A stretch of 62,381 nt of DNA, filler included, from Dugesia japonica (Eukaryota): NCBI GenBank assembly GCA_001938525.1. It is 5 parts of 5 records of this genome, joined end to end, with 100 filler letters (N's around TTAATTAATTAA, not from the genome) between each part and the next. Parts side by side here need not be neighbours in the genome. Positions count along the whole stretch, not along the records: positions 47,312 to 62,381 come from MQRL01281750.1; 4 more parts are not named here. The stretch is one strand, 5' to 3'. Of this stretch, positions 7,363 to 62,381 are shown piece after piece. Made by a program: the position numbers and the translations under genes. The stretch's first letter is position 1, and each line of letters begins with the position of its first letter. Under the pieces are notes generated by a model that saw only the letters and a program-made list of their open reading frames with translations, was not told the origin of the DNA and searched no databases.

Positions 7363-7810
7363 TAGTCATAAATAATTTTGTCTGGTCTTGAGATAGACGA
7401 TTAATATTAGGTCTCTTAGCTATTTTAGGCATTACTGACGTATCTGAACAATTCAATTCCCTGGCGGCCAGTGCAATATTTCCAGTGTCCATGCTTTCCT
7501 TGCCGATTTTAGTATGAAACTCCTGATGTAAAGACAAGCTATCTTTCATTTTCCTTTCTTTTCTTTGTTTGTCTGCATATTTTAATGCGCCATCTTCCAA
7601 TAACCTCGTTATTTTCTGCAACTCTGTTTCTATCTTTTCATCGTCTTTTGGTTGCATGTCTGTTTTTAGTTCTGAAATTACATCTTTCTCCGTTAGTTCC
7701 CCTTCCCAATCTTCTTCATACTCAGCGTCCTCGCTGAGACTTCTTTTCCTTAATAATGATTCTAAACCACTCCATGGCGGGGGGTCAACTGGTTGAGACC
7801 ATAATATCAA
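7328..7810 (-). CDS. Charged accessory ORF of the Gypsy element, unknown function
   Basis: 160-aa open frame, same strand as pol. Confidence 0.45.
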   Translation of the reverse strand: MILWSQPVDPPPWSGLESLLRKRSLSEDAEYEEDWEGELTEKDVISELKTDMQPKDDEKIETELQKITRLLEDGALKYADKQRKERKMKDSLSLHQEFHTKIGKESMDTGNIALAARELNCSDTSVMPKIAKRPNINRLSQDQTKLFMTNDKSVTISQDK

Positions 7811-7816
7811 CCAGTC

Positions 7817-8716: not shown

Positions 8717-8821
8717 ACCTACTTTTTTCTCTAATAGTTCACGTAATGTGAATATTTCCGTATCTTCCGGGATACTTTCTGTGGCTTTTGATCCACCAAT
8801 TCTCGACAGACAATCGGCATT

Positions 8822-9280
8822 TTAGTTGGCTTTGTCTGTTTTAAATTTTAATAGAGGACAATAATCCTGCATTGCTAATTGCCATTTTGCCATTCTATTC
8901 CATCGTAATGGTTTCTGAGCCATGAAAGTGATTGGTAAGTGATCTGTATAAATTAGTACCTCGTGCCTATGTATCAATGATCGGAAATGTTTAGTGGCTT
9001 TTACTATTGCCATGATTTCTCGTTCGGTTGTGCTGTAATTTAGTTCACCTCCTTGGAATTTCTTGCTGAAATAAGCGATCACTCTCTCTCTTCCCTGTTC
9101 ATCCAATTGGCTTAATACGGCACCCATCGCGTATCCACTAGCGTCAGTGGCTAATATGGATGATTTCTTGAAATCTAGATGCACCAGAATTGGTGCAGTT
9201 AATAATTTGTCCCGTAATGTCTCAAATGATTGTTGTTGTTCCGGTATCTTGTTTGACCAATTCTTGCATCGGTTTTGCAA
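8822..9280 (-). pseudogene. pol: Gypsy RNase H
   Basis: LATDASGYAMGAVLSQ, NYSTTEREIMAIV, YTDHLP; followed by stop then NADCLSR. Confidence 0.92.
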
Positions 9281-9363
9281 TTTTAGCGAAATCCTTAATG
9301 AATTTGCGATAATAGTTTACTAGGCTGAGAAATTCTTGTATTTGAGTACACAATTTGGCGGCG

Positions 9364-10070
9364 CTAGATTTCGAATTTTTTCAGTATTCGTGGATCAGGT
9401 TCTTTTCCTTTGTCCAATATCAAATGTCCGAGATACGTTACCTTATTCTTAGTCCATTCACACTTGGTAGGTTTAACTTTCAAGTTCCATTTTCGTAAAC
9501 GGATAAACACACAACGTAAATCATTGAGGTGTCTTTCAAATGTTGATGAATAAATCAATAGATCGTCAAAATAGGCCATAAATTGAGAGATACCGTGAGT
9601 TACATAATTCATGATTCGTTGAAAAGAGGCTGGTGCATTAGTAAGCCCGAATGGCATACGAANNNNNNNNNNNNNNNNNNNNNNNNTGGAAAAAGCTGTT
9701 TTTTCTCTGTCTTCTGGTTTGATTTGTATCTGCCAATACCCGCTTCGCAAATCCAATGTGGTGAATATTTTGGCGTTACATAGTAATTGCAACAACTTAT
9801 TGATGTATGGTAGTGGATACGTATCTTTTTTGTTTGTGCATTTAACCTTCTGTAATCGATACAGAATAGCTGTATCTTATCGCTTTCTTATCCACTAACA
9901 CCACTGACGATTACCATGGTAAGCAGCTAGGTTCTAAATTTCTGATTTTCACTAATTTAGCTGTTTCTTTGTTGGCAAACTCCTTTTTCTCCCCCTTCAT
10001 GGCATATGGTTTCTGTTTGCTCGGGGTTTCATCCGTTAGTGGAATTGTGTGCATTGTAGCTGTGCACATA
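9364..10070 (-). pseudogene. pol: Gypsy reverse transcriptase (frameshifted)
   Basis: LDLRSGYWQI, MPFGLTNAPASFQR, YFDD, VTYLGH. Confidence 0.95.
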
Positions 10071-10245
10071 CCTAGCTCTTCATCAGTCCATGCAAAAATA
10101 TCTCTAAATTCCNNNNNNNNNNNNNNNNNNNNNNNNTGATCATCCGATAAAGTTTCTGTCTCTAATTTAAATGTTCTATCGATTAGTGGTTCGGCGATTA
10201 TTGCCTCTATCTCGTTGAGTTCTGGTTCGATGATAGTTAGTGTAC

Positions 10246-10830
10246 CTATTCTAGAATTTGTTTGATCGTAATATCTTTTTCAGTGAAGTTAACAAAGCTA
10301 ACTGGTACTTCTCCACTTTTGTTGACTGTGGTTATTCCTCCTGCTGTAGGTAACTCATACTGTTGTGCAAATCCGTCATACGGTTCAAAATAACAATCTC
10401 CTACGTTTGCACTTTTGGTACTGACTACACAATATACTTGGCATCTACTAGGTACCAAAATCTCTTCTGTAGTGAATACTTCATGATCTTTAACGTGGGT
10501 ATACCCCTCCAAGGATTGCAACTGTAATGTGGAGAAGTTTAATATGCCATTCTTCATCAAATTTGGGAGAATGTCCGTACCCAAAATGCACTGTCCAGCC
10601 ATTTCAACTATTATCATTTTGTGTTTGATTTTGTTGTCTTGATATTCTACTTCACAGGCTAATTCCCCAAAAATTTTAAGACTGCTTCCGTTTGCCACAT
10701 CCGCCGTAGTGTTAGTGGGTATTATGTTTTATATTCTGTTATTGCGATTTCCTCTATTGATAACAACGAGATCGTTGCTCCTGTGTCTAGCAATGCTGTT
10801 GTAGGTCTCCCATTGATTTTAACTATAATT
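10246..10830 (-). pseudogene. pol: Gypsy aspartic protease plus downstream spacer domain
   Basis: ALLDTGATISL near 10770-10800; ANGSSLKIFG and CILGTDIL. Confidence 0.85.
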
Positions 10831-26714: not shown

Positions 26715-26716
26715 AA

Positions 26717-26872
26717 ATAATCGAAAGACCATCTGTAACAATTTATTCTAAAATTAATACAAAGTACATTGATAGTTTAAAATTTAACATTGTATTTGAA
26801 AATTTTAACACAATAGATTTTAACCAAGAAATGATTTCTATTTTAGTTCATTTAAGAAAGTATCGTTTGTGA
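26717..26872 (+). CDS. Minor capsid (penton) 3' end, element C
   Basis: IIERPSVTIYSKINT...FENFNTIDFNQEMISILVHLRK aligns with the C-terminus of 51656-52381. Confidence 0.8.
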   Translation: MIERPSVTIYSKINTKYIDSLKFNIVFENFNTIDFNQEMISILVHLRKYRL

Positions 26873-26955
26873 TATTTTACATTTTACACAAAACATTTTA
26901 CATTTTACACAAAACATTTTACATTTTACATTTTACACAAAACATTTTACATTTA
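26873..26955. repeat. Intergenic tandem repeat of TTTTACA/CAAAACA units
   Basis: Direct reading. Confidence 0.8.
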
Positions 26956-26959
26956 AGAA

Positions 26960-40454: not shown

Positions 40455-42929
40455 TATTTATTTATTTAAATAGATTGTTATTGATTTAGAATAAAATCAG
40501 CATGTGACTGCTATCAGTCATTAAACACACACACATTTATATATAGTCCTAATTCTAATAAATGAATTTCCAAAACTTATACTAATATCAAATAAAAAAT
40601 TGTTTATTGTAAAAATAGTTTTAAATTTCTATTTACCAACAAAAAATAATAATATCAATTTTTATGATTTTTTTAATTAGATTTTTTAAAGTTAATAAAA
40701 TGTGATTTTTATCAACGCATTGAAATCAATTTTTATTTCAAAAAATAAATGGAAAAANNAATGGAAAAATATCTGAAAACAGAAAATAATTTGAAATAGA
40801 TTTTAATTCGAGCGAACAAAAATTTCAATAGATGAAAAATCAAAAAAAAATTAACTGTAGGGGAAGAAAAAGAAAGAAAATAATGAATAATATATAGATT
40901 GGAGAGAGAAAGTAATTTGAAAAAATGTACAGAAAATACTATTAGAAATGATGAAAAGAAATTCCAAATTCCACGAATGTAATACCAAAATAAATATTAA
41001 TTTCAAGCAACTGTAATAATGAAAAAATGATTATTTCTATTCGATAATAGTAATTAACAGTTAGTTTCTGTTTTGTTTACATTTGCTATTGAATACGGAA
41101 ATAAAATCATTTTTATAAAATAGAAATGTATTTTTAAAATAACTGTACAAATTAAAAATTAAATCTAGTTTTCATTAAATAGATTAATTTATAAAAGTTT
41201 ACTATTTACAGGATACAAAATGAAAAAGCAGCTTGCCAAAGTTATTAGTCACATATAAATGATGATGTGGCTTTTCGATCCGACATGAATTGATAAATCG
41301 ATTATCATTCAATCAGGACAATTTGAACAACAATTTTAAATAATTAATTGCTTTCATTTTCAACTGTTAATTTACTTTTACTACTATTATTATTATTNNN
41401 NNTTATTATTATTATTGATAATTATTATTGTCAGAATTGTTGCTTCTTAAATTTAACGAATTTATTGTCTAAAATCAATTTCCGAAATTTATATATTTTT
41501 AAAAAATTCACACAAACAAAATACAATATTACAATATTAAAACAACACATTCTATTGAGGATTTTGTCATATTATTATTATTATCATTATTATTATTTTT
41601 ATTGTCATTCATTAGTTGCAAATAATTGTGAATTTAGACAATTAGAAAGGTCATCAACAAAATTCCAAACAAGAATAATGGAAATTCGAGAAGAATATCA
41701 TATTAAATTTATTATCTGTACTTAAAAAGAATCGCGACTGGTTTATTTGACGACCTTTAGAAAACTTTAAATTAATTTAATTAAGCTAAATTTTTTTTAT
41801 AATTTCAATTATTGATAAAATAATTCTTATTTTTGTATTTTTTTAGGCTTTTGAATTCCAAAATAAACCAAAAATTTTACAAAAACAAATTCAAATTGTG
41901 GTGTTATGATTCTGGAAATGATGTATAACATGTGAAAATGAAACAAAATTACATCAATATTGTATTATGACATAAACGTATTGATGAAATAATTGGTTTT
42001 AGGTTACGTATTAATCTTATTTATGAAGCTATGTTGTGTGAAATTTTGTTCAATCTTATAAATCAGTCTAACCAAGTTTAAATTGAAAGTCATTTGTAGT
42101 TATAGTAATAATTATATAGTAATATAACCACTGAACCCTATGAAACAAATACAACAAATACCACCTATTAAGTACTATAAATTCATCAAAAATATTATAT
42201 TCGATGAATTTTAGTGCAATTAATTAATTTTAAATAGTTTTAGAAAAATTGATGGAAATTTAATAAATCTTAATCAAATTTGTCTATATTTTAATCACAG
42301 GTTTATACATTTTAATGAAATTACTTATGAACTCAGTATATTTTTATTAACATTTTCTGTAAATCTAAAGAAATTTTATAAATTCATGCTATCGAAAAAA
42401 AATTTAGAAAATTACAAACTATTGTCTTAATATATAAAAGCTGGTGACAATTTACACATAGTTTGTCACAATTCATATATAGGTAATCACAATTTATGGA
42501 CAAGTGGTTACAAAGCGTTTGTAGGATGCTAAAATTTACAAACACATAGTTACAAGTTCAATTCAAATGCTATAAAAAATGTATGGAACGAAACTTTCAA
42601 TTTAAAAATGAATAAAGTTATAAACAGTTCATTGTTTTTATTTAAATAATAATGAATTTAGAAAGAGGTCTTTCGATTTTTACAACATTGATAAACGTTC
42701 CAACTATGATGAGAATGAAAATGTCACAGTTATTTCCATCAATTGTTAGAGACAATTTACTCGATATTATTGTTACCACTTATTAAACATTGAGACAATA
42801 GTTTGTAATTTTCTATGTCTAAATTTTATTAAATTAAATTAAATTTTTAAAAAATGTCTTTAGATTTACAGAAAATATTAATAAAAATATACTAAGGGGA
42901 ACAATAAAGTTAAGATTCAAACGATTAAG

Positions 42930-44460
42930 AATGCTTTAGTTCAAGAATGGTCTTCGAAACTTCGTTCGTTTCTTGTCGTTTCATAAAAGATGATACAAAG
43001 ATAGCAGCTAATTTATATGAAGCAACTTCAGGTTGCAACAAACCGTTAGGATCATGCAGAAAATTTTCAATGCATTAAAAGACAAATAATGTAATGCTCC
43101 TGTATTATAATATCCCAGCAAAGATAGGATGTTCGATTTAGACACTGACGCTAGTTTTAAACTATCGTCACAGTCTTTAGTCAATGTAAAAAGGAAAAAT
43201 AAGGGCTAATAGCGTATGAATCCAGACATTTGATAGTTCGGGGAAAATGGTACTATGTGACAATGAAAGAACTATTAGGTATACACAAATTTGTGCACAA
43301 ATTCAAACAATATCTGTATGAAAATAAATTTCTAGTAAGAACAGACCACAAAGCGTTTTGTGTTTTAAAACAACACAAAAAAACCAAGTCCAGAATTCCA
43401 GACATGGATATCAAATGGGGAGAGTATGATTTTGAACTCAAGTATTGAAAAGGCAAAGAGCACAACAATGTCGATTGTTGTCGAGGCTAAAGGAGAGTTT
43501 ATGTTCACAATGGAGCATTAAACACATAGACGCAAAAAGCGAGCGTGAAACATATCAATGGANTTAATCATAAAACCGATATAATTACAATGATTCTATA
43601 AACTCAGATTCAAGAATACAAAGCTGTGTAACATCATTGCAAAAATAGGGTTTAGTGACTAAAAACAATGAACAAGAAAGCTACTGAAATAAACTGAAGC
43701 ATTATTTAAAAATAGTGGATGATCTGTTAGTTTTGAACAGAGGAAATAATTTTTTGTTTGTGGTTCTGACAAGCATAGTTGATAAAGTGATAAAGGAAAT
43801 TCGTGAAGATTTATGCCATGTTAGAAAAAGTTATTTTTATACGTACAAGATGGTTTTCTGGCCAGGGATAAATAAATGCAAGATGTATGACAAAAAGAAA
43901 GTAGTGCAAAGTCGAAGAAAACAAAAACTTATATCGTGGGAAGCTAAAATATTTAAGAACAAACCGTAGTGGTTATATCTCATATGGAACAAAGCAAGTC
44001 TGGAAAGAAATATAAAGTAGTAATTATTGATCGTTTTAGCAAACTAGTCAGCTTATTTGCAGTTTCAAAAATGGATGAAGAGACAGTTTTCATGATAATT
44101 TTGAACAAATGGATACACCATTTGGTAAACCAAAATCCATTCTGATTGACAAAGGTAAAAAGTTTGAAAATCAAGTGATTGCAAAAAACTAGGAAAATTT
44201 GGAATTGTGCAGGAATTTAGTTCTCTGTATCGACACCAGTCGAAGAGTTTGTTAGAACGGGTGATCCGAACAGTGAGAGACATGATTAAAATAGCAAAAA
44301 AGGGAAATGTAATGAGGAACATACGGATACATTATTACTGAGAGTAGAATTTAGTATTAATGTAACAAATTAAGGTTATATTTTATATTTAATAAATATT
44401 CTAAGCACTTAGTTATTCTTCAAGTGTGATAGAGGACAAGGAGATTGTAATGGTGTAAAT
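42930..44460 (+). mobile_element. Highly decayed Gypsy pol (RNase H-integrase) remnant
   Basis: LDTDAS, VRTDHKA, FWPG, IIDRFSK, FGKPKSILIDKG, ERVIRT; purine tract then TGTAA near 44445. Confidence 0.8.
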
Positions 44461-47211: not shown

Positions 47212-47311
47212 NNNNNNNNNNNNNNNNNNNNNNNNNNNNNNNNNNNNNNNNNNNNTTAATTAATTAANNNNNNNNNNNNNNNNNNNNNNNNNNNNNNNNN
47301 NNNNNNNNNNN
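47212..47311. other. Artificial scaffold linker
   Basis: N44-TTAATTAATTAA-N44. Confidence 0.95.
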
Positions 47312-49191
47312 AAAGGAATTAAATTACTTATTTTATTGGGACATTTCTTACACAATTCGGTAAAAACAAAATGATTATCAAATTTTGAAGCATTGTGAGC
47401 ATAAACTGGAACAAAATACTTTTTAGGTCTTTCATATTTCTTGTTGCATTCTTGATGACAATATCCTTGAAAATCTCCAATCCAAGGATTAATTGATTTG
47501 TATCCAGTGAACTGGATATCATCATCTAAATTTAAATTACAATAATAACATTTTTCTTCAGCTAGTTGATCAAATACATTTTCATCTAGTTGAATCTTTT
47601 CAGATTTAAATCTATTTTCAATCAAGTTTTCAAAAATATTATTAAATTTAAATAACCAATCAATAAATTTAGAAATACAATCTATTCCTTTAAAACATTG
47701 ATAGATATTTTTCACTTTTGGATGTCTACTTACTAGATATAATCCTAAACAAAATGGAATCAATTCACAAGTCTCTGAATGTTTAAAAGTTTCAATATCA
47801 AAGTAAATAGCAAAAGGATTCCAGTTTTTCATGTAAAATTTATTAAACTTGTATGTTTTGTCATTGGTAAATTTTATATCTGAAGATTTTTGTTTTAAAC
47901 ACAACTTTTGATGATTAATTAATGATTCTTTATTTCTTTTCCAAGTCATACAATTGATGTATAATTCTTGAGTGTGATTTGCTTTTAATTTTATCTTGTT
48001 TAGATTTTGAATTAAAATGTAGTGCTCTCCTTGGGAGTGTTTATTCAAAAAGAGCAAATTACATTTATTATGTAAATGAGAAGGATTAGTATCAAAGTGA
48101 GAACTATAAAGTTTTTGAATTCTAGGTTCCCAATTCTTTGACTTGAGAACTTGAAAAACATTAACTTTAAAGTTGTTTAATTTCTCAAACTTGGGTAAAT
48201 CTTTAATATTCATTGGCATTGTAATACCTTCCCAATTTAGAAAGTTGTCATTAATATTATTATATGAAAAAACTGAATCTCCTAGTTTAATATCAAGATG
48301 AGCCATTATACAATATTTAAAACAATTAAAATCATTCTTTGGATTTTTAATGTTTAAAATTCCTGGAATATTATTCCATTCACTAGGTAAAGGAGAATAA
48401 CCTTGACCAGCTAATGACTCATAATCTGAAAGTTCAATAGTAAAAGAATTAAACTTTTCAAAAGACCATCCTGATCCTTGAGTTTCAGTTGTAAAAATAT
48501 CTTCTGATAATTGATCCAACATGTTGTTGATTACTAGATTAATTTGACTAGGCATTGTTATTTTTTCAGAATGAACATCATAATCTTATATCCAATTTTG
48601 AGCATTACAACTATTATCACCAGAAAAGTCTTTTGTATAAGTAGTTGAACATGTTATTGAAACTGCAACCTTTTGAAATTTATTTAAAAACAAATTAACC
48701 ATTTCCTTTATTTCAAAAGAATAATCTTTTAATAGATTAAAATTAATTCTATAATTAAATTGATAAATATTTTCAATAGCAGGTTATGGCTCATTTTTGT
48801 AAATGTTAAAGTTTCTCTTTAATTTAATCATTGTTTCTTGGCAAGTTTCAATTTCATAATCTGGATAATCTTTGAATAATTTTCTTAGAGATGAATCTGA
48901 ATCTGAATCCTCTGACTCTGACTCTGAATTATTCCAACTAGTTGGTTCCAAATCAGCTACTTTCATGACATGATTACGACCTTGTAAATGTCTATTATAA
49001 TTAACCAAATTATTAAAATTAATATTACAAATATGACATCTTCGCCAAACATTTCCTAACCTACTTTGTTCAACTTTTCTTAAAAGAGGTTTTCCTCTAA
49101 GATGAGTTTCTAGATGAGTAAAACTTTTAAAATATTGATTACACAATTCACAAAATTTTTCAGTTAACTGAAAAATATTAGCTTGTGTCAT
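47312..49191 (-). pseudogene. polB: Protein-primed DNA polymerase B, 5' half (two zinc fingers, TP/OTU-like region, exonuclease); two in-frame TAA
   Basis: ORFs 48784-49191 and 47312-48555 are in one frame; QGSGW, NIKN..D..CFKYCI, YFDIET, VYAHNASKFDNHF. Confidence 0.88.
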
Positions 49192-49361
49192 TTTATATAG
49201 AAGTAATTTGGTCTTGTTTTGGTTTTATATTTTTATATTTTTATATTTCCAACTCGAGTTAACTGGAACTGATTCAACAATTTGGGAAAAGTTTGAGCCA
49301 ACTCTTGAAGTTGAATTTGAATATCATTTTGAAGATTGTTAGCAACATTCTTATCTTGTTC

Positions 49362-49910
49362 TTAAACAAGAAGTTGAAGTTGATTTTTTAGACTATTAAT
49401 TATATCTTTTGAAGTTTTAATTTCTTCATTACTCAATTCATTATCTTCCAAAGCTTTTACATGAAAGATGAATAATTTATTTTTAGTTTCTTCCAATAGT
49501 TTAATTTTTGCTGTATATTTAATTATTCTATTTTTAATTAAACCAACACGTAATGAGCCATGAGCTATTGAATAAATTATTGGAATTCCAGTTATTATTC
49601 CTGTTGCTAATATTGAAATAGTAAAAGATAGAGTAGTCATTAAAATTATACTACCAGAAGCAATTCCTACTATTGTAGATATTCCAACATCAGTAAATCT
49701 TATTCCATTATCAAATCTAGACCATCTTTTTAATAAATTATTGTAATGTTTTAATTTTTCATTAACCCATTCCAAATCACTTGTAAAATCTCTAATTCTT
49801 GTTCTATTTAATTTATTTTTCCAATCTTGTATAGTTTCACCAGTTGTCTGAGTTTCCCAACCATTGGACAAATCAGGATAAAGTTTTTCAGCTTGCTGAT
49901 CAACACTCAT
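49362..49910 (-). CDS. Conserved Polinton protein with two hydrophobic helices
   Basis: Homolog of 29188-29763. Confidence 0.8.
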   Translation of the reverse strand: MSVDQQAEKLYPDLSNGWETQTTGETIQDWKNKLNRTRIRDFTSDLEWVNEKLKHYNNLLKRWSRFDNGIRFTDVGISTIVGIASGSIILMTTLSFTISILATGIITGIPIIYSIAHGSLRVGLIKNRIIKYTAKIKLLEETKNKLFIFHVKALEDNELSNEEIKTSKDIINSLKNQLQLLV

Positions 49911-50172
49911 TTTTAAATAATTTATTTTGGATCAAGTTTTATTTTTTAAAATCAAGTTTTATTTTTTAAAATCAAGTTTTAATTATATAATTGATTATCG
50001 AGTTTAATTTCCAGACTAGTTAAATAAACACCCTTGGAAATGTATATTGAAAAAGAAGATCACTTGAAATTAGTTTGAACTACTTCTTTTGATTTTATAC
50101 CAAAAAAAGCTATAGTTGAATCTATTTTTAAATTAAAGGTTTTAAAAATCACTGGAACTGAATGGGCTTTTA

Positions 50173-51201
50173 TTAAAATTTCAATATTAGTTTCTTTTCC
50201 ATTATTTGGGTTATGACAAAAACAAAAAAAATTATTAAATTTTCTTTTTCTTCTAATAATTCAAAATTTAATTTTAATCTATCCAAGAGATGATAATAAT
50301 TATTTCCAAACAATTGTTCAATTTTTCCCTTTCTTACAATTTCCAATTTTTTTATTCTATCTACCCCAATACATGGTAAATCATTTACAATTAATGATGA
50401 AGATAACATAAAAATTATATTTTTATATTTTTTTAGAGGTGGTCCAAACTCTTTAACTTGTTCATTAAAAAATGGAATATATGGAAAATAATTATTTAGA
50501 AATTTCTTCAAGTGATTTAATTTATCTTGTGAATAAAGTTTCTTTTCATCTCTTTGTTTAGTCAAATCATCTAAATATATTTTAATTTCATCTAGTTTTT
50601 CAGATGTTAATACTAGATATATTTTTGTTAAATCTTCTTTTAATTTGGGTAAAGGATCATTTTGAGATTGCAAGTAAAAATCAAATTCATATTTTAATTT
50701 ATCAACTTGTTGTTTCAACTTGTTACATTTTTCTTTACCACAATTACTTGTTAATTTTTCAACTTGTTTCTTTAAATTTTCAACTTGTTTCTTTAAATTT
50801 TCAACTTGATTCTTTAAATCATTTACTTGATTCTCAATATGACTCTTGTTTTGTTTTAAGTCATTAAGTATAATTAACATTTCACTTTTTATTTTTATAA
50901 ATTCTTTTTTACTTTCACTCAAGTTTAATTTATTACTTTCCATCAAAGTTTCAATTGTTACTTGTTGTCTTGTAATTTTATTTTCCAACTTGTTGGCCAA
51001 GTTAGTTATTTCAGTTTGAATAAATTTCTTGTCATCATATTTACTATTTTTAATTTCTTCTTCATGTTCATGTATTTTTAATTTGATATTAATTTTACTT
51101 TCTACTTTTCCATCAAATGCTTCAAGTATTTGAGAAGTATTTTTATTTTCAAGAGTTTCACCAAATCTATTCATTATTACATTTGAAAAGCTATGAGTCA
51201 T
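50173..51201 (-). CDS. Putative fibre/spike-like coiled-coil protein
   Basis: MNRFGETL; heptads QVNDLKN-QVENLKK-QVENLKK-QVEKL; NY.PY and IVRKG shared with 27406-29127. Confidence 0.55.
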   Translation of the reverse strand: MTHSFSNVIMNRFGETLENKNTSQILEAFDGKVESKINIKLKIHEHEEEIKNSKYDDKKFIQTEITNLANKLENKITRQQVTIETLMESNKLNLSESKKEFIKIKSEMLIILNDLKQNKSHIENQVNDLKNQVENLKKQVENLKKQVEKLTSNCGKEKCNKLKQQVDKLKYEFDFYLQSQNDPLPKLKEDLTKIYLVLTSEKLDEIKIYLDDLTKQRDEKKLYSQDKLNHLKKFLNNYFPYIPFFNEQVKEFGPPLKKYKNIIFMLSSSLIVNDLPCIGVDRIKKLEIVRKGKIEQLFGNNYYHLLDRLKLNFELLEEKENLIIFFVFVITQIMEKKLILKF

Positions 51202-51646
51202 ATTTAATCATTTCTTTTTTTAACAGGTGTTTAAATGTTTTTTTTAATTCTTTTATTACATCATTAAATGGAACATTGTTGACTATTGAATAAATAAAAT
51301 AAATACACAAGATTCCACATATTCTTGTTCCCCAAGGTTGAACTTGAACTTGATTCCATTTAATAACATTTTCTTTACCAGTTGACTGGACACAATCTAT
51401 TGGAGGTAAACCATAAGAATCAAAATAATATCCAGGAATATATGCAACCCAATGAGAACCTTTTTGTTTTGTATTTTGATAATTAATAATCCAATTTCCT
51501 TTTTCCAAGTTGGAAAACTCATTACTCATTACAACATTAACATCTAGTTGTAAAAATTTAGCAATTTTCATTAAATCAAAATTAGTCATTGTTGATATTC
51601 CAAATGTTTTTAAAAAGTCTAATACTGTCCACATTTTCTTAACCAA
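51191..51646 (-). CDS. Adenain-like (C5) maturation cysteine protease
   Basis: GSHWVAY, YFDSYGLPP, QVQ.....CGILCIYF (His-Asp-Gln-Cys intact). Confidence 0.93.
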   Translation of the reverse strand: MVKKMWTVLDFLKTFGISTMTNFDLMKIAKFLQLDVNVVMSNEFSNLEKGNWIINYQNTKQKGSHWVAYIPGYYFDSYGLPPIDCVQSTGKENVIKWNQVQVQPWGTRICGILCIYFIYSIVNNVPFNDVIKELKKTFKHLLKKEMIKYDS

Positions 51647-51655
51647 CTAGTTGGA

Positions 51656-52381
51656 TTAACTACTTTGTCTTAGATGTAATAGTATACTTATTTTTTCACC
51701 ATCAAAATCTATAGTATTAAAATTTTCATCAACTATATTTAATTTTATCCTAGACAAGAAATTTGTATTTACTCTACAATATATTGGATTTGCTGGTCTA
51801 TCAGTAATTCTATAACCATATGGAACTGTTCCCATAGGAAGACTATGTAATAAATTATATTCTTTATTATTTAAATAATTACCTTGAAGAATGTTACAAA
51901 TAATATTAATTGTATTTACATCAATAATATTTATTTTATTTTGTGAAATCCAATTACTTGACTTGTTAATTTTATAACCTATAGTCAAAGCCTCATATCC
52001 TAAAATTGAATGAAAAAATGAAGTATTATCAAATTCAAGTAATAAATCTTTTAGTTTATCTTCTTCAGTCTGGTTGGGAGGAGTATACAAAGTCATTATT
52101 GCTTTCCCTGTAGAAACATCAAATGTTAATAGTATTCCAGTTCCTGACTGACCAGTTCCAGTTAATTTTTCTGCAATCTGTTTAATTTCATATGCTCCTG
52201 GTGTTGTTTTTTCAACATTATTAATTTTATATTTATTATTTTTAGTATTAATATTTAAAATCATGTTTGAAGTTGTAAACCAAATTAAAGCAATTTCCCA
52301 TCTTCCTTGTAATTCTAAACTTGTTGATAAAGTTGTTTCTAATTCACCGTCTTTTCCAAATATTAAAAATTGATGAGACAT
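51656..52381 (-). CDS. Minor capsid protein (penton)
   Basis: LQGRWEIAL, PGAYEI, INIICNILQG, VPYGYRITDRP..PIY, IDFDGE. Confidence 0.88.
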   Translation of the reverse strand: MSHQFLIFGKDGELETTLSTSLELQGRWEIALIWFTTSNMILNINTKNNKYKINNVEKTTPGAYEIKQIAEKLTGTGQSGTGILLTFDVSTGKAIMTLYTPPNQTEEDKLKDLLLEFDNTSFFHSILGYEALTIGYKINKSSNWISQNKINIIDVNTINIICNILQGNYLNNKEYNLLHSLPMGTVPYGYRITDRPANPIYCRVNTNFLSRIKLNIVDENFNTIDFDGEKISILLHLRQSS

Positions 52382-52400
52382 TATTTTTACCTTGTTAGTT

Positions 52401-53219
52401 TTAATCTAAATATTTTTCCACCAACCTATAATATTTATTTTGATTTATAATTTTTGATTCAAGTAGTTGATTAATTATATTTTTAAATTCATCTTCAAGA
52501 TTATCATGTCCTGCTTTAATAGCTGAAGTAATCTTTACAAATTCTTCAAGTAATTTTATTGGGTTAATTGATAAACCTTCACCAATTTTCTTGGTATTAT
52601 CAATTTCTTTATATTCTGGTGGTGTTTTTATTTTTTTAAATTCTTCATCAAATATTCCTCTTTTTTTACAAGCTTTAATATAATTACTAGAATGAGGAAT
52701 ATTTAAACCAAAGTCTTTTAAATAAATACTTTTGGCTTGTTCATCATTAGAACCATATCCAAACATTAAATTTAATACTTCTTGATTAAAAGGAATTTCT
52801 TTATCATCTGTAACAAAAAATTTCTTTATCTCTCCATCTCTTAATTTTTGTTTTAAATAAATCATAACAGAACCTATATTAAAAGAATTAAAAGTATTAT
52901 CATTATCATCATAAACAATATAAGGTTTTAAAGTATTAGATAAATCATATTTATTTGTAATTTTTATATCTTCTTTTTTAATTTTAAATCTATCATCTTT
53001 TATATCTTCATCTTTTATATTATCATCTTTTATATTAACATCTTTTATATCTTCATCTTTTTGTTGAATACCTTGAAGATTACCTTGAAGATTAAATGGT
53101 CCAACCCAATCAATTGGAACCTGGAAACTAACTTGTTGAAGAATTAAATTATTATATTTTTCTTGAGCTTTAATTTGTTTCTTTAAACGTTTTATTCTAT
53201 CTTGTATCCATGTATCCAT
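52401..53219 (-). CDS. Conserved Polinton protein, probable virion core component
   Basis: KIGEGL followed by NP.KL......SAIKAGH...EF..II..L. Confidence 0.7.
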   Translation of the reverse strand: MDTWIQDRIKRLKKQIKAQEKYNNLILQQVSFQVPIDWVGPFNLQGNLQGIQQKDEDIKDVNIKDDNIKDEDIKDDRFKIKKEDIKITNKYDLSNTLKPYIVYDDNDNTFNSFNIGSVMIYLKQKLRDGEIKKFFVTDDKEIPFNQEVLNLMFGYGSNDEQAKSIYLKDFGLNIPHSSNYIKACKKRGIFDEEFKKIKTPPEYKEIDNTKKIGEGLSINPIKLLEEFVKITSAIKAGHDNLEDEFKNIINQLLESKIINQNKYYRLVEKYLD

Positions 53220-53231
53220 TTTATAAAAAAC

Positions 53232-53783
53232 TTATTTTCCTTGATAGGGCTGGAAATATAATCCTTCACCAGATGGAATAATTTCTATTCCTTGTTTAAA
53301 TTTCTTGTGTCCAAGTAGTTGAGGCTTTCCTATAACAGATTTTACATATTTATGAATAGCTGTTCCTTGATAGGGATTTAAATATATTCCTTGTCCATCT
53401 ACTACTGGTTGTTTTGCTTTATTTAATTGAATATCTAATAATTCATTTCTTTTACCCACATTAACTGCTTCTCGAGAATTACTAACCACCTTTGCAATTC
53501 CCGCGGCTGTTCCAGCCGCTGTTCCAACTGCACCTAATCCTGCTAAAATTCCTGGTATTAAAGCTAATAATGGAAATATTCCACCTTCTGTCGTCTTCAC
53601 TCCAGAGAAATGTTTCTCTTTTAATATTTCTTTAGTCTTTTTACCTATCCAATAATTTTTACCATTTATTTTTATTGATTTACACTTGTTACTATTTATC
53701 AATTCTAGTAATTCCTTTTCTGTTGTGTTTGTTAATATGTTAGTAGTCATTTTATTAACTAAATTATTTTGCTTTCCTATCAC
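53232..53783 (-). CDS. Adenovirus pX-like core/membrane-active protein
   Basis: EGGIFPLLALIPGILAGLGA resembles pX GG-hydrophobic motif; repeated GxG-hydrophobic-Y..PYQG. Confidence 0.65.
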   Translation of the reverse strand: MIGKQNNLVNKMTTNILTNTTEKELLELINSNKCKSIKINGKNYWIGKKTKEILKEKHFSGVKTTEGGIFPLLALIPGILAGLGAVGTAAGTAAGIAKVVSNSREAVNVGKRNELLDIQLNKAKQPVVDGQGIYLNPYQGTAIHKYVKSVIGKPQLLGHKKFKQGIEIIPSGEGLYFQPYQGK

Positions 53784-53794
53784 TATGCTCTAGA

Positions 53795-54589
53795 TTAAAA
53801 TAAATTATCCATCAACATTTCCTTTTCCTTGTCTAGATAAAAATAATTGTATTTTGTTTTCCAATGATGATTAGTTTCAAAATCATATTCTTCTTTATTA
53901 TTAAAAATATTACTAAAAAGATCATGATAAACATTATCCTTTTCTCTTTTACCTAATTTGAAAAATACAAAACAATTACTATTATTTCTTATGGAATTTT
54001 TATCCAAGTCATAATAAGTTTGAGATATATAAATTACATTACAATTATTATGTCTCCCTCTAGTGAAATAACTTTTTTGAACTTGTTGATTCTTTTCATT
54101 TACAACATCATCAAATATAATTAAATTTTTCTTATTGTTTGGTAACTTATCACATGGTACAATTTCTGATGCTTTACTAGAAATTGTAATATTTATTCCA
54201 GCTTCCACTTCTTGGATATTAGGTTGATTAAGAAGTTGACAATACCAATAAATAATTTCTTGTGGAGTTAAATCTTTGCCAACTAGTTGGGATATTCTAT
54301 CTTGCATCTCATCTGAAAAAATATTCATTAAATCTTGTTTAGAAAGTCCTTGACTAAATCCATGGTTTAATAATTGAATTTCAAATTGTGATATTGTTGT
54401 TGAAAATAAAATTAAATTATTATAATCTATAAAACCTGGAGTTAGTAACATTTTTAGTAATAATACATTTTTTCCACAACCAGAAGAACCAATAATTAAA
54501 CATCTAAATTGTGGTGGAAATATTTCATGTTTAAACTTGCTAGAATTATTTTTCCATATTGGTAAGATTCCAGTCAACTGCCCAGTCAT
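53795..54589 (-). CDS. A32/FtsK-like genome packaging ATPase
   Basis: GSSGCGKN, LIIFDD, FTRGRHNN, ISQTY, IRNN. Confidence 0.93.
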   Translation of the reverse strand: MTGQLTGILPIWKNNSSKFKHEIFPPQFRCLIIGSSGCGKNVLLLKMLLTPGFIDYNNLILFSTTISQFEIQLLNHGFSQGLSKQDLMNIFSDEMQDRISQLVGKDLTPQEIIYWYCQLLNQPNIQEVEAGINITISSKASEIVPCDKLPNNKKNLIIFDDVVNEKNQQVQKSYFTRGRHNNCNVIYISQTYYDLDKNSIRNNSNCFVFFKLGKREKDNVYHDLFSNIFNNKEEYDFETNHHWKTKYNYFYLDKEKEMLMDNLF

Positions 54590-55969
54590 TTTTTACCCAA
54601 ATTAGTTAACTGGAGTTCATTAGCATAAAATCTACCAAGTACTTTATTTCCTTCTTCATTTTGTATTCCAAAAGTTAATACTCCATCCCATGGTTGAGAT
54701 GTATTATTTTCTCTATAAATTTTGTATATTATATAAATCTTTTCAGTCCAATTTGTTGTATATCCCTTTTCAAATTTATTTTTAAATCTAAAAATTCTAA
54801 CTCTATCTCCTATTTTCAATTTCTTTTGTTTGTTAACAAAGTCTTTTCCAACTAGTTGATTAGTGTTATTCCTTTTAATAGTTTTATTATATAAGAGGTT
54901 AGGAGAATCACTAGCTTCTTTTGGAGTAATATTAATTGAACTATGAATTGTATTATTATAATCTTCAACTATAGATGTTAACAATTCTTTATTCCATTTT
55001 TGATTTCCTTGTCTTGTAAATTTTGTATAATTTTCTTTTAAATGTTCTAATTACTCGTTCAACAAAAACAGCTTTACCTTGAACTTCAGTCTCTAAAGAT
55101 GTAGAATATAAATTTATATTATTCTCTATACAAAATTCCTTAAAAACTTTATTATAAAATTCTTTACCATGGTCAACCCATAAATTATTAGGAATACGAT
55201 TACTTGTTTCTATTATATTTTCAAATCCATCTTTTACTTCTTTTCCAGTTTTATTATCAAGTATTTCTAAAAATAAAAATCTAGTATACAAATCTACTAC
55301 CATTAAAACACTAGTTAACTGTTTTTGATTTGGTTTCCAACCACTTAACTGGAAACCTTTAGGATTCCCTAAAAACATTAAATCTGCTGACCATGTTTCA
55401 TATTTAAAGAATATTTTTACTTTGAGAAATTTTTTATTTTTATTAAAAGGTTTATGTAATTCATCCTCTATTCCAGAACCAAGTATTATTTTTCCCTTCA
55501 TAGCCAACTTTACTATTCCTCTTTGAATTATTTCACTAGTAGTTGGATTTTCAATATTATTTAAATCATGTATTAAATTAACATCTGCTAAATGTCTATC
55601 TCTTAAATCTTCTGAAGTGTAAGCAATATCATGTTTTAGAGCACAAGCATCAACTTGATTAATTGGTTCTTCACCAGGTAAAGGAACAAGAATTCCTTCG
55701 TCATTGTTTTCTAATCTTAAATCTAATCTTGTTCCTGGCCCAGTATAATTATGTCCAAACAAGTGTCTTTCTCCTGGATACTTTTCAGTTGTAAATGGTT
55801 TTAAAATTGTACTTGTTAATTTAGAAGATTGAAGGTCTCCTCCCTTTTCAAGATCTCCTCTGGTTTGAGCTTCATGATACTTTTTTGAACATATTCCAAA
55901 ATGTCTTTTTCTATTTGACTTGGTTAAATATCTATTACATATAGTACACAATTCTTTTTCTAGAGGCAT
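54586..55969 (-). CDS. Zinc finger-PLA2-rve integrase fusion, one frameshift near 55020
   Basis: CTIC..H...C; NYTGPGT..DACALKHDIAY; WSADL, WVDHGKEFYN, VERVIRT; C-terminus YNNTIHS..IGDRVRI..FEKGY..NWT in 54586-54984. Confidence 0.92.
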
Positions 55970-55993
55970 TTTTTATTCCAATTAATTTTGATC

Positions 55994-57295
55994 TTAACTG
56001 GGAATTCCTCTTGTATTAAAATTTTTAACATCTTGTCCTTTAATATTTTCTACAAACATTACTTTTCCATTTGATATTTTTAATTCTACATGTTTCTCTT
56101 GAAGTATTAACCAATATAAATTACCAGTCATTTCACTATCTTTTGTTACATGACAAGTTAAATCTACATTATTTATAGTTAATTTTTCATCTTGAGCAGA
56201 ACAATCAAAACAAAATATTGGATAGAAACTTGACCAATCTTTAATACTTAACTGTGGTTTGATTAAGAATGCATTACACATGTCAATATACATTTGATAT
56301 GGAAACATTACATTATTATTTTTTAAATCAAACTCTTCTCGAGTATTTGGATAATAAACATTATTTAATTGTAATTGAATAGTTTTTAAATAATAATTAA
56401 ATGTTTGATCTACTTCTACTGGAGGATTTGCATTATTTCTTACTTTTTTAGTTATAGTTTGTTTTATTGTAAATAAATTATTATTATTTTTATATGAATT
56501 GGTATTATATTTAAATCCAATAATTACAAATCTAGGTCTATATAGTAAGTTACCCATTTTAATTGAAAAACTAGTTCTAGTTGTTAATGAACAATTACCC
56601 ATTTCCCTTTCCAAAAATGAAGATTGAATACTTTTACCTGATGATAATCTATCCAAATAACTCAATTCACTTTTTGGTGATAAAGTCCATTCTGGAATGT
56701 GTAATTCTAGTGTATCAATTTGAATTTCAACTTTATCTTCTGTAGTTCCAAAGAATATTTTTTCATTCATTATTTCTCTATTGCAATCCAATTGAATAAA
56801 TGTATTGAATAATAATCTATTATAATTTTGTAAAAACCCAAACAGATTTCTTAGAGGATAATAACCTTCATATTTTGTTGAATGTAATTCTTGTCTTTTA
56901 ACAAAACTTTCTTTTATCGAATTTGGAATCCATCCATATGCTGAACAAGATTTTTCATTTGCTTTGTCTATTAAAATTAAATTAATCATTGTAGAAGCTA
57001 CATCTGGAAATGTAATTGATTCAATATAAGTTGATCCTATTTTTAATCTCATTTGTGAAAATAAAGCTGGAAAGAAATCATTTTCTAGTGTTGTTGTTGC
57101 TATAGGATTCTTAAAAGAAATTTTAAAATACATTTTTCCATTACCAATATCTAATGGATTAGTATTTTGTAAAGATTGAAATGAAATGTCTCCATTTTTA
57201 TTTAAATTTACTATCGATCCAGCCGTTGGTGAAATTTTCAACAAATCGTTTTTAGTTTGTAAATGTGTAAAGTTTATATTAAAATCTAGATCCAT
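55994..57295 (-). CDS. Major capsid protein (double jelly-roll, hexon-like)
   Basis: 433-aa intact ORF; LFSQMRLKIG..IE, PLRNLFGF, PRFVIIGF, LNNVYYP, PIFCFDCS. Confidence 0.88.
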   Translation of the reverse strand: MDLDFNINFTHLQTKNDLLKISPTAGSIVNLNKNGDISFQSLQNTNPLDIGNGKMYFKISFKNPIATTTLENDFFPALFSQMRLKIGSTYIESITFPDVASTMINLILIDKANEKSCSAYGWIPNSIKESFVKRQELHSTKYEGYYPLRNLFGFLQNYNRLLFNTFIQLDCNREIMNEKIFFGTTEDKVEIQIDTLELHIPEWTLSPKSELSYLDRLSSGKSIQSSFLEREMGNCSLTTRTSFSIKMGNLLYRPRFVIIGFKYNTNSYKNNNNLFTIKQTITKKVRNNANPPVEVDQTFNYYLKTIQLQLNNVYYPNTREEFDLKNNNVMFPYQMYIDMCNAFLIKPQLSIKDWSSFYPIFCFDCSAQDEKLTINNVDLTCHVTKDSEMTGNLYWLILQEKHVELKISNGKVMFVENIKGQDVKNFNTRGIPS

Positions 57296-57318
57296 TTATT
57301 TGAAAGATATTTTTGTCC

Positions 57319-57999
57319 TTAGTTATATTTCTCAACATTCTCCTTTGAAGGTTTTATTTCTATTGAATTTTTATTACTTGGTTCTCCATAAACACGAGTA
57401 GCTTCTGTTAACATTCCTGGTTTTGGTAATCGTGTCTTTTTTCCTGGTTTTAGGTTGGAATGTTTTTCCACCAATTCCAAATGTGCATTTACAATATCTT
57501 GTGTTCTCATGAATGAATGTTTATCCTTGCTAATTATAGTGGTTTTAATCCCTGATAAGACTACAACTTTTGGTTTTAATGTTTCATTATATTTTTTTCT
57601 CAATTCATTATGTTCATCACGCTCTTTTTGTAATTCCATCATTGCATTTTCATACATTTCTAATACTTCACTATACCGTGATGTTAAATCAGTATATAAT
57701 AATTCAAGACATCCCGATCTTGTTTGAGAAGTCATTACAATACTAAATAAAGCTTTAAATAATTTCTCTTCTTCTTCTGATGAACTTTTTATTTTTTTCA
57801 ATATATCTTGTAATATCAACATTTTATTTTCCACGAAAGCTTTTGTTATTGGTATATTACTAAAATTTGCTAAATCACTTGTAGTAAAACTATTAATATT
57901 TTCAACATCTCTTATTGTTTCATATAAAGTTGACATTGTTAAAGAAAATTCTTGTGCTAATTCTGGAGATAATTTTTTTACTATTTCTTTACTACCCAT
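57319..57999 (-). CDS. Hypothetical protein, homolog of 36347-36946
   Basis: 226-aa ORF conserved between A and C. Confidence 0.8.
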   Translation of the reverse strand: MGSKEIVKKLSPELAQEFSLTMSTLYETIRDVENINSFTTSDLANFSNIPITKAFVENKMLILQDILKKIKSSSEEEEKLFKALFSIVMTSQTRSGCLELLYTDLTSRYSEVLEMYENAMMELQKERDEHNELRKKYNETLKPKVVVLSGIKTTIISKDKHSFMRTQDIVNAHLELVEKHSNLKPGKKTRLPKPGMLTEATRVYGEPSNKNSIEIKPSKENVEKYN

Positions 58000-58059
58000 T
58001 TTCTATAGATAAAATTTAAGATTTCGAAAACCCTTGTCTGTTATACTAAGAGAAAAAAA

Positions 58060-58190
58060 TGAATTATGGAATATGGTACAGATTACAGTATGGATTATGG
58101 ATTACAGTATGGATTATGGATTTCAGCATGGATTACAGTACGGATTACAGTACGGTAAACGGTACGGTAAACGGTACGGTAAACGGTATT
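58060..58190. repeat. Tandem repeats (TGGATTACAGTA and ACGGTAA/ACGGT) between divergent genes, followed by TATATAAA
   Basis: Direct reading. Confidence 0.8.
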
Positions 58191-58205
58191 TTTTTCTGTA
58201 TATAA

Positions 58206-58622
58206 ATGACTCATACATTAGAAGATATCAACAAAAAATTACTAGACTATGATTTTGTAAATAACTCTGTTTCAAAATTTGCTAAAGATAATTTAGTAAA
58301 TGAAAAAACAATAAGAAAATACTTGAAACTTTTTAATATTCCTTATAATAAGAAACAAAGAAATATAATTCAAAATAGAACTGTAAGTGGAAAATTTACA
58401 TTTACTTCATTTTTAGAATCTCTTAAAGTTGAAGAAACCCCAACTACTTTAGAAAAGAAAAAGAAAAAACATAAACATAGACTTAAAGAAGAAAATATTC
58501 AACCTCCTTTTTACTCCAATCAAAATATAAATTATATTAAACCTAAACCAGAGAAAATTTCTTTCCATGAAAATAAAAATGGATTTTTTAAACATTGTGA
58601 TGATGTTATGAATCTTAAATAA
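58206..58622 (+). CDS. Small basic HTH-like protein
   Basis: SVSKFAKDNLVNEKTIRKYLK; homolog in element C. Confidence 0.65.
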   Translation: MTHTLEDINKKLLDYDFVNNSVSKFAKDNLVNEKTIRKYLKLFNIPYNKKQRNIIQNRTVSGKFTFTSFLESLKVEETPTTLEKKKKKHKHRLKEENIQPPFYSNQNINYIKPKPEKISFHENKNGFFKHCDDVMNLK

Positions 58623-58639
58623 AAAAACAATATCATCTT

Positions 58640-58883
58640 TCATCTTTTACTATCACTTTTACTATCACTTTTACTTTTACTATCACTTTTACTATCACTT
58701 TTACTATCACTTTTACTATCACTTTTACTCATTTAACTGGTTTTTTATCTATTTAACTAAAAATCTAAATTTACTATTTTTCCCTTTACCTAGGAAGTTT
58801 TTTTTTTCCTTTATCTAGGAAGTTTTTTTTTTAAATTTTGGGGTGGGGGGTGGGTGTGTCTATCGCGCCATTATACATCTACT
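58640..58883. repeat. Putative right terminal inverted repeat with 12-bp subterminal array (TTTTACTATCAC)n
   Basis: Tandem array, G-tract, terminal CTACT; partner TIR not in the window. Confidence 0.7.
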
Positions 58884-61800
58884 TACGTAAAATAAAATTA
58901 AAAAGTAATCATGTTCAAGAGTTGTGCATAAACTGTATGACTTGGAAAAGAAATAAACAATCATTAATTAATCATCAAAATTTGTGCTTCAAATATAAAT
59001 CAGCTGAAATAAAATTTAGTAATACCGACACATACAAGTTTTCCAAATTTTTCACCAAAAACATGAATCCTTTTGTAATTTACTTTGACATTGAAAATTT
59101 TCGTTCTATAACCAATGAATTAATTCCCTTTTGTTTAGGGTTTTATTTAGTAAGCAATCATCCAAAAGTAAATAACATTTACCAATGTTTCAAAGGATTA
59201 AATTGTATTTCTAAATTTATTGATTGGTTATTAAAGTTTAATGACATTTTTGAATCTATAATTCTAGATAGATTTATTTCAGATGACTACTCTGAGGACT
59301 CTGAGTTGGAAACCTCTAAAAAATGTTATTATTGTTCTAATAATCTTGAGGACTCTGAAGAAAAAGTTTCACAGAGTATTAATCCTTGGACTGGTGAATT
59401 CCGCGGTTATTGTCACAAAGAATGTAAAAAGAAACATGAAAACCCTAAAAAGTATTTTATTCCAGTTTACGCACACAACGCTTCCAAATTTGATAATCAT
59501 TTTGTTTTTACCGAATTGTGTAAGAAATGTCCCAATAAAATAAGTAATTTAATTCCTTTAAATACTGACGTCTACATTTCATTTTCAGTTGATAGATTAA
59601 GGTTTCTTGATTCATTAAGAATGCGTAGTGGACATACAGTAGAATTAATGGGTCAAGATTTAGCCAAAAGTAAAATTCATCCTCATTTAAGTAGTTTTTC
59701 ATTAGTTCCTTGTAAAGGCTTCTATCCATATGATTTTGTAAGTGGAAAAGATTATCAAGAAGTAGAAACTAAACTATTAAATTATACACCAAACATTAAT
59801 CATTTTTTCAATTCATTAAAACAAACACAAATGACTGAAACTGATTACAATAAATTTTTAACCGACTACTCACAATTTCCCAATCTAATGAAATACACAA
59901 TGCACTATTTAAAACTTGACGTATTAATTCTAGCCGACTTTTTCGAGAATTTCCGACAAGTATCCATGACAAAAAATGAAATTGATCCAACCTATTGTTA
60001 AAGCGCACCAGGTCTTACATGGGAAATTGGAATGAAAAAGACACAAGTTGAATTAATTCTTCCAAATCCTAGTAATTACGACATGTATCTAACTATTGAG
60101 CAAGGTATTCGAGGAGGATATTCTGGTTTGTGTGGAAATCATCATGTAATAGCTGACAAGGAACACACAATCAAATGCCTTGATCAAAATAGTTTGTATT
60201 CAGCTTGTATGACTGAACGATTGCCTTGGGTTAAAATGTGGTGGTCAGATAATAAAACTTATAAACCTACAACTGATGAATTTAAAATCATTGATGGTGA
60301 AAAAGTTTATGTTGATTACATTTATACAGTGGATTTAATTTATCCTGAAAGTATAAAAGAAAAAACCAAATATTATCCCTTGGCAGTTGACAAACAACCA
60401 GTTGAATATAATGAATTGAGTAATTACCAAAAAGATTTACTAAACAAGACAGAAAAAAGGCAAAGTAAATATTCTAAACTAATAATGAATCAGAAAAATA
60501 AATACAAGTACGTTGTAATGGGTAAAGTTCTAGACTTTTATCTAGAACAAGGAATGATACTCAAAACTATTGTTGAGTTTATAACATGCAAAACACACAT
60601 GCAAAACATAACATAACACACAGAAAATATCAAAGCAGATCCTCAAATTCAAATCCCAAAGAAAGTAATCGAGCTCAGTATTATGGTACAAATTCAATTC
60701 AAATGCAAACCCCAAGCATATCAATTTATTATTTGACATTATTAATTGAATCAAACATTTATCTTGTTTAACTGAATCATTAAATCAAACATTTATCTTG
60801 TTTAACTGAATCATTAATAATTCATGAATTAAACAGTGTAGTTGATTTTATTTTAATTCATTGAATTTATTTTATTTTGTAGTTTGAATTTATTTTTATT
60901 TTTATTTTTATTTTTATTTTGTATTTTGAATTTATATTTTTATAGTAAAATATTTGGACATTTTGAATTATTTTTATTTTATTGTAAAAAATTTTTGAAA
61001 AGAACAATTAAATTTGGAAAGAAATAATAAAAAATTTTATAAATGTAAAAAATTATTTTGAGAATTTTATTGCAGGTGTATTAAGCCTACCTGTGTGAGA
61101 TTAGTATAAATACTAATCAGTTTTAGTGTAAGAGCAGACATTTAAATTACAGAAGGCTCCGAACTCTAAGTGNNNNNNNNNNNNNNNNNNNNNNNNNNNN
61201 NNNNNNNNNNTATAAGGATACGCTGTATATTTATATTCCAAAAATAATAAAAGTATTTTAAAAGGTGTGTTATATTATTCATTTATATAAGGAACTACAC
61301 ATATTACCATATCTATAATTTTCTGTAAAATATTGCAATTATATATTATTGTATCAACATACACATAGAGAATTTAACACCCGTAAAATCTTTATATATA
61401 TTTTTTTCGAACCATAAAATCTTTTTGTTGAGTAGTAATACCCAACACTATACACAGTAAAATAATTGTTCCTACAAAATATTGGCTCAAGGATTACATT
61501 GAAACTAATATTAATAGTAGAAATGAAGCAAAAGCTAATAATGATACATTTGGTGATGCTTTCTTTAAACTATTAAATAATGGTTTTTACGGAAAGACAT
61601 TGGAAAATGTTAGGAATCGAGAGAATTTATTCTTGGCAAAAAGTAAAAAGGAAATTAAAAATCAAGTTTCCAAACCAGGATATAAATCTTCAACCATTAT
61701 TAATGAAGAAGTTGCTTTGATGTAAAGTTTCAAATCTTCAATAATGTATAACAAGTCTCCTTATATTGTTTTCTTTGTATTGGAATACGCAAAACTAATC

Positions 61801-62282
61801 ATGTATAAATTTGTTTATCATGATATTGAAAGACTAATCCCCCAACAATACAAAATCCATTACAGTGATACTGATTCATTAATGATGGAATTTATTCATC
61901 CAGGACAATCATGGGATGAATTCACTGAAAAAAGTAAAATTAAATATTTATTTGGAAAGAATCTCTTTCAAATGAAGGATGAGTTTCCCAATGAAGTAAT
62001 TACTGAAGGTTTTTTCATTAAAGCTAAATCATATTGCCTTTTAAAAGAAAAACTCCACACCAAGCACAAGGGTTTAAGTAAAACTAATAAATTAACTAGT
62101 GAACAATATCGTAGTGTTTGTACAATAATGAAACAATAACTGGCATTAATTATTCTATTAATTCAAAAATTCATGTTGTTAAGCAAACAGAACAAGTTAA
62201 AAAAGCATTGACTCCCTTTGATGATAAACGATTTATTTTAAGAGATGGAATAACTGCACTTCCATATGGATATTTTTCATAA
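58884..62282 (+). pseudogene. polB: polB of a second Polinton (B): 5'-truncated by element A, interrupted by a solo LTR, two stops and a frameshift
   Basis: YFDIE, HNASKFD, KGFYPY, YLKLDVLILADFFENFR, IRGG, DQNSLY, KLLNNGFYGKT, YSDTDS, DDKR..LPYGY. Confidence 0.92.
60571..61447 (+). mobile_element. Solo LTR inserted in polB B
   Basis: TGTTG...CAACA ends, 4-bp TSD CTAT, TATAAATA plus TCAGTT and AATAAA; removal restores the frame (LKTI-HSKI). Confidence 0.88.
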
Positions 62283-62381
62283 TTAAATTATTATTATCAT
62301 TATTATCATTGTTGGGTTGCTAGGCTTTTTGATGTTATTTTATTTCTGATTAATTCGATCTTTGATTTTTAAATTGCTTTT

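Follow-up and report, generated by a model that had tools for sequence, protein, structure and literature searches.

Mavericks/Polintons of vertebrates, in the part of the survey available (PMC8097293), carry a protein-primed polymerase (pPolB), a retroviral-type (rve) integrase, an A32 ATPase and a double-jelly-roll (DJR) capsid, have the end motif 5'-(AGT)2//(ACT)2-3', and show mutational decay at 96% of their loci. Mavericks nested in each other are described from Trichomonas in the available passage of PMC12289875, and the available text on Halocafeteria seosinensis (10.64898/2026.07.28.741278) places five PLVs and nine virophages within other viral elements, with host TEs inside them. The portions available of PMC12220804 and 10.1101/2025.02.07.637071 describe retrotransposons that lie nested within PLVs or polintons; the word 'nested' is absent from 10.1101/2023.08.22.554363, PMC11131425 and PMC10120064. 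Nested Mavericks and nested PLVs/virophages are, in short, already published.

The locus described here lies in a stretch of 62,381 nucleotides from Dugesia japonica (GCA_001938525.1), referred to below as the window, which consists of five scaffolds, has a GC content of 25% and is 39% Polinton DNA. On its last scaffold, which runs from 47312 to the window end, one Polinton (element A) stops against the polymerase gene (polB B) of another (element B). The arrangement probably arose by untargeted insertion of A into an integrated, related element B, both of which have decayed since. Element A resembles the vertebrate elements, as described in the text available, in its pPolB, rve integrase, A32 ATPase, DJR capsid, (AGT)2-like end motif and mutational decay; it differs from them in having the motif form AGTAGA, in being available at one end only and in carrying all its core genes on one strand. 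The Trichomonas case is likewise a Maverick in a Maverick, but host and gene set differ, and the passage available gives neither junction detail nor a test of targeting. The layered pattern of Halocafeteria seosinensis is also alike, although protist PLVs and virophages are the partners there and two closely related Polintons here. Adintoviruses with PLA2-like genes, in the part of PMC8502044 available, have a PLA2-like domain, an integrase and a hexon-like capsid in common with A; there, PLA2X is a gene of its own, whereas here the integrase carries the domain at its N-terminus, as a fusion. The same fusion is seen in a third Polinton of the window (element C) and in the metagenome loci L001 (5188-6513) and L003 (1559-2353).

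Gene content and decay of the two elements

Inward from 58883, the genes of element A run from orf138 (plus) to minus-strand orf227, capsid, integrase and ATPase; inside the ATPase come four further virion-type genes and two accessory ORFs, then a zinc-finger-led polymerase that leaves the scaffold (Table 1). Judged from sequence similarity, A carries the protein-primed PolB, rve integrase, A32-like ATPase and DJR capsid of a Polinton/Maverick, and its genes are shared by the metagenome relatives L001 and L004. The best ESM Atlas match of the capsid is a DJR cluster, and its 15 relatives are 37-49% identical. The N-terminal polymerase piece matches the L004 polymerase (tblastn, E 1.8e-11), which in turn matches PF03175 (E 1.2e-10); the piece itself gave no direct Pfam match, its catalytic half lying beyond the scaffold edge. 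No match in Pfam or PDB was found for the protease-like and minor-capsid-like genes; the L004 protease is weakly similar to Peptidase_C5 (E 0.046), and the L001 homologue of orf185 has a pX-like match (PF05829, E 9e-4). The lesions of A are two in-frame stops in the polymerase (48784-48786 and 48586-48588) and a frameshift near 55029 in the integrase, where two frames are needed against the L001 integrase, giving three in about 7851 bases.

Table 1. Positions of the features of the junction scaffold and of the linkers in the window
Feature	Position	Strand	Description
Artificial linkers between scaffolds	18030, 26615, 37028, 47212		
Linker	47212..47311		44 N + TTAATTAATTAA + 44 N; element A continues beyond the scaffold edge here, other end absent
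Element A polymerase, N-terminal part	47312..49191	-	C2H2 zinc fingers, then pPolB N-terminal region; cut by scaffold end
Element A accessory and virion genes	49362..53789	-	orf189, orf344, protease-like, minor-capsid-like, orf276, orf185; homologues in element C, L001, L004
Protease-like gene, element A	51191-51646	-	homologues in L004 and L001
Minor-capsid-like gene, element A	51656-52405	-	homologues in L004 and L001
Packaging ATPase (A32-like), element A	53795..54592	-	PF04665 E 1.9e-8
Integrase with N-terminal PLA2-like domain, element A	54586..55972	-	PF00665 (rve) E 6e-9; PF08398 E 1.1e-8
DJR major capsid protein, element A	55994..57295	-	433 aa, open frame; PF21738 E 2.6e-20
Terminal genes of element A	57319..58622		orf138 on plus (58206-58622), orf227 on minus; element C has homologues of both
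Probable terminal region of A	58631..58883	-	12-bp and 25-bp tandem arrays, GC-rich tip, end motif 58878-58883
TACGTA in polB B codons L-R-K	58884..58889	+	palindromic; candidate right-hand copy of 6-bp TSD
polB B, first surviving piece	58884..60570	+	5'-truncated at A's end; PF03175 E 4.9e-6
Bases identical to inverted scaffold start 47312-47385	59486..59559	+	74 bases; rest of polA/polB pair 78% identical
Second insertion in polB B	60571..61447		877 bases; TGTTG...CAACA ends; 4-bp direct repeat CTAT at 60567-60570 and 61448-61451
polB B, C-terminal piece	61448..62282	+	PF03175 E 1.3e-5; natural end 62280-62282

Within the window, element B is a polymerase piece alone, and the window stops 99 bases past its stop codon. 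Two of the three pieces scanned match PF03175, and the gene is colinear with the L004 polymerase down to the C-terminus at 62282; B carries a protein-primed PolB of the Polinton/Maverick kind. Compared with the polymerase of A (polA), it is 70% identical over 230 amino acids (tblastn, E 5.5e-102) and 78% identical at the DNA level, and over 225 codons dS is 0.67 and dN 0.22 (ratio 0.33). This amount of divergence points to two separately evolved working lineages. A fold-back or allele of polA was considered as an origin of polB B and rejected on the 78% identity and the dN/dS of 0.33.

The gene has been interrupted a second time, by an insertion that contains an assembly gap (61173-61210, 38 N) which may conceal an internal region, and that has no other copy in the window. 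From its TG..CA ends we take it to be of LTR type, either a solo LTR or a collapsed element. Given the clean 4-bp duplication around it, polB B appears to be a gene that collects insertions. Besides the truncation, four lesions are counted in the 2518 coding bases of B: this insertion, one frameshift that falls somewhere from about 62085 to 62139, and two in-frame stops (59999-60001 and 61723-61725). The difference in lesion density between B and A has P=0.064 when the insertion is counted and P=0.158 without it, and the observations lean towards B having been older, or already dead, when A arrived. Since both elements carry lesions, B may have died before or after that arrival.

Other mobile DNA is present in the window. 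Element C occupies a scaffold of its own (26715-37027), with minor capsid, protease and accessory genes on the plus strand and ATPase, PLA2-integrase and capsid on the minus strand; its core genes are 40-59% identical to those of A at the amino acid level, stretches of it are duplicated beside gaps, and no polymerase or terminus was seen in it. Decayed LTR-retrotransposon pol-like frames, with protease, RT, RNase H and integrase motifs recognised by eye, lie at 7300-10730 and about 43000-44300. Inverted-repeat pairs, possibly DNA-transposon ends, are found at 42332-42896 (79-92% identity) and 1527-1821/14024-14395 (74-83% identity). A search of 57900-62381 against Rfam returned zero matches.

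The junction at 58883/58884

The terminus of element A, ...TACATCTACT, finishes at 58883. Its end hexamer (58878-58883) agrees with the vertebrate motif at five of six positions, at the one end available; matches of at least five of six occupy 0.6% of window positions, and one lies within 3 bases of 3.8% of positions. The last 54 bases are 46% GC, compared with 23-27% on either side, and the tandem arrays lie directly inside this tip. A search of the window with up to three mismatches found the 18-base terminus once only. Relatives of the capsid were sought among viral contigs (0 of 16 and 0 of 150 candidates) and in metagenomes (16 of 491 candidates); no terminus-like match was found in these loci, of which seven were inspected for end motifs and all 16 were compared by blastn with the terminal 900 bases of A. 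The 17 IMG/VR matches to the terminal 16-mer were set aside as chance, given that only 4-8 of the next 24 bases agree and that none carries Polinton genes.

On the far side of the terminus the sequence changes abruptly. Protein homology of B to the polymerase of A begins at codon 58883-58885 on the opposite strand, and in register with polA 44 of the 60 bases after the junction are identical but only 16 of the 60 before it, where 15.7 are expected by chance. The terminus is for this reason not degenerate polymerase sequence. The earlier note had placed the end of A at 58883 with TACGTA following at once, and had polymerase homology starting at the junction codon in opposite orientation; both are borne out. 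That homology goes from chance to 73% exactly at the end motif of A counts in favour of nesting, as does the second insertion, a sign that this gene collects insertions. Against nesting are the failure to find the left junction with its duplication or a second copy of the terminus, the incomplete end motif, the lack of a bridging contig, and the fact that the assembler met sequence common to the polymerases of A and B.

The read data were consulted as assembled contigs. Part of 56500-60560 is present in six of the 12 runs listed (shares 0.08-0.23; three samples), all matches being short contigs. In four runs, 32 of 1773 pieces were listed; none of those listed crosses the junction, and four of them are exact matches, two on A's side and two on B's, at depth 3.5-4.5. 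Exact matches on both sides indicate that the sequences of A and B are real and do not imply that they are adjacent. The alignment over 58810-58935, also in four runs, gave nine records from a filtered source. None of the nine crosses the junction and 58810-58882 is uncovered in all four runs, which, the records being filtered, neither supports nor refutes it. One contig, in three of the four runs, fits both 58541 and 58894 with 38 other letters between; this is probably a low-complexity match.

All nine records match B (at least 90%) from 58883 (one record), 58886 (four) or 58888 (four), with loose letters before that point which, judged by eye, are like the stretch upstream in polA and unlike the terminus of A. 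Related copies would thus carry this stretch within a polymerase gene that runs on. Since their contigs agree with B from 58883-58888 onwards, the hexamer is likely to be target DNA, as a target site duplication would need, and TACGTA is likely to represent B's own polymerase codons. Only three of its six bases agree with polA when that gene is taken alone.

Given that the scaffolds are short and gap-rich, with stretches duplicated beside gaps, it is conceivable that the junction is an assembly chimera, in which a contig ending in the terminus of A was joined to a contig of some polymerase copy. Such copies are numerous, no contig bridges the join, and the scaffold edge carries 74 bases shared between the two polymerases. 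However, this is quite unlikely for two reasons: first, neither a gap nor a shared repeat is present at the junction, the scaffold being without a gap from 47312 to 61172 (the first is at 61173) and the longest string common to the last 20 bases of A and the 40 bases upstream in polA being five (P 0.54); and second, there is no reason why a false join should coincide with an end motif, given how rarely one lies so near by chance.

At its other end, element A runs off the scaffold at 47312. Neither polA nor the complete L004 polymerase, used as tblastn queries, found a 5' half of polB B within the window, and the left junction (polB 5' half, hexamer and A terminus) was recovered from neither the window, the read contigs, with contig cover absent there, nor the protein databases. 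None of 69 candidates passed as the predicted truncated 5' polymerase protein; the databases seem to be without close relatives of A's family (best capsid 49%), so this null search carries no weight. In a rival account, A went into B or its neighbourhood, and the 5' part of B up to the terminus of A was removed afterwards, by a deletion or by a one-ended integrase event. In that case the hexamer would be no TSD and B's 5' half would be absent from A's other end. Both elements are old enough to have gathered several lesions, and the window contains neither that half nor any other gene of B. This account is unlikely, given that it requires a second event that stopped precisely at the terminus, whereas the scaffold end at 47312 simply accounts for the missing half.

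In the preferred reading, untargeted nested insertion, the retroviral-type integrase of A would have inserted A, unaimed, into a copy of B that was resident in the genome by then, and its staggered cut would have duplicated the hexamer. The 5' half of B would have been left at A's other end, beyond the edge of the scaffold. A and B would then both have decayed, with B additionally gaining the LTR-type insertion, and B would have been one of many related copies, a neutral landing site.

The identical patch at the scaffold edge

When inverted, the 74 bases that open the scaffold recur without a mismatch in polB B; the next-longest identical run in the polA/polB pair is 31. Summed depth is greater around this patch than anywhere else in the region, which suggests a conserved or converted patch where the assembler stopped, and this is the simplest reading of it. 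There is a small chance that the downstream halves of the polymerases were swapped, or that inverted copies have been homogenised. The perfect match at the edge implies that the assembler met sequence common to the polymerases of A and B; the patch lies some 600 bases from the junction and has no bearing on it.

The contrast between 74 and 31 raises a further possibility, that A together with a captured half of B forms a composite element, in which homogenisation is turning the inverted copies of the polymerase into long, gene-containing terminal repeats. Butterfly polintons, in the part of 10.1101/2025.02.07.637071 available, do have gene-containing TIRs of 2 kb. The exact-match contig at 59766-59915, however, has a depth of 4.5, close to the 3.9-4.4 of A's unique region and not double (a weak comparison across different runs), the C-terminal half of B is broken, and the top summed depth on the patch fits a conserved sequence and an assembler stop. 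A composite element has hardly any probability.

Targeting and the meaning of the probable nested insertion

Since the gene struck is an essential one of a relative, it could be proposed that A's family prefers resident Polintons, or their polymerase genes, and so knocks out competitors. A precedent exists in another class: in the part of PMC8547959 available, EMALEs harbour 91% of type 1 Ngaro retrotransposons. Ngaro is a tyrosine-recombinase retrotransposon whose targeting was shown by a tally of dozens of sites; here there is a single site, and sequence-specific integration was, according to the same available text, not found for the related EMALEs. In such elements, moreover, no gene is longer than the polymerase (1403 aa in L004), and an unrelated LTR-type element has inserted into the same gene. 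Across polB B the summed depth rises to 1000-2000, compared with about 4 for the exact-match contigs, which suggests many targets, although summed contig depth is no measure of copy number. The many related polymerase copies in the reads would thus form a large target for chance insertion. A preference of the family for resident Polintons is, on this evidence, very improbable. Equally improbable is the more specific proposal that the integrase of A is steered to a palindromic site in the polymerase gene of resident Polintons, as intra-family warfare by targeted integration.

The earlier note had read the locus as nested integration disabling a sibling, possibly targeted. Nesting is the likely reading, given the switch in homology at the end motif; the insertion may or may not have done the disabling, given the other lesions of both elements, and the suggestion of targeting finds no support in one site, with an LTR-type element in the same gene and related polymerase copies abundant. 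No paper describing targeted Polinton-into-Polinton insertion was found in the literature searched, which included few subscription papers and excluded supplements, where such junctions could be listed.

Taken as an untargeted nested insertion, the locus is a small, clean instance of an already published pattern. The junction also supplies the probable terminus of an uncharacterised Polinton family, whose nearest database relatives have less than 50% capsid identity. The locus would be of wider importance only if a genome-wide tally showed that A's family seeks out other Polintons, since endogenous DNA viruses would then be competing in a new way.
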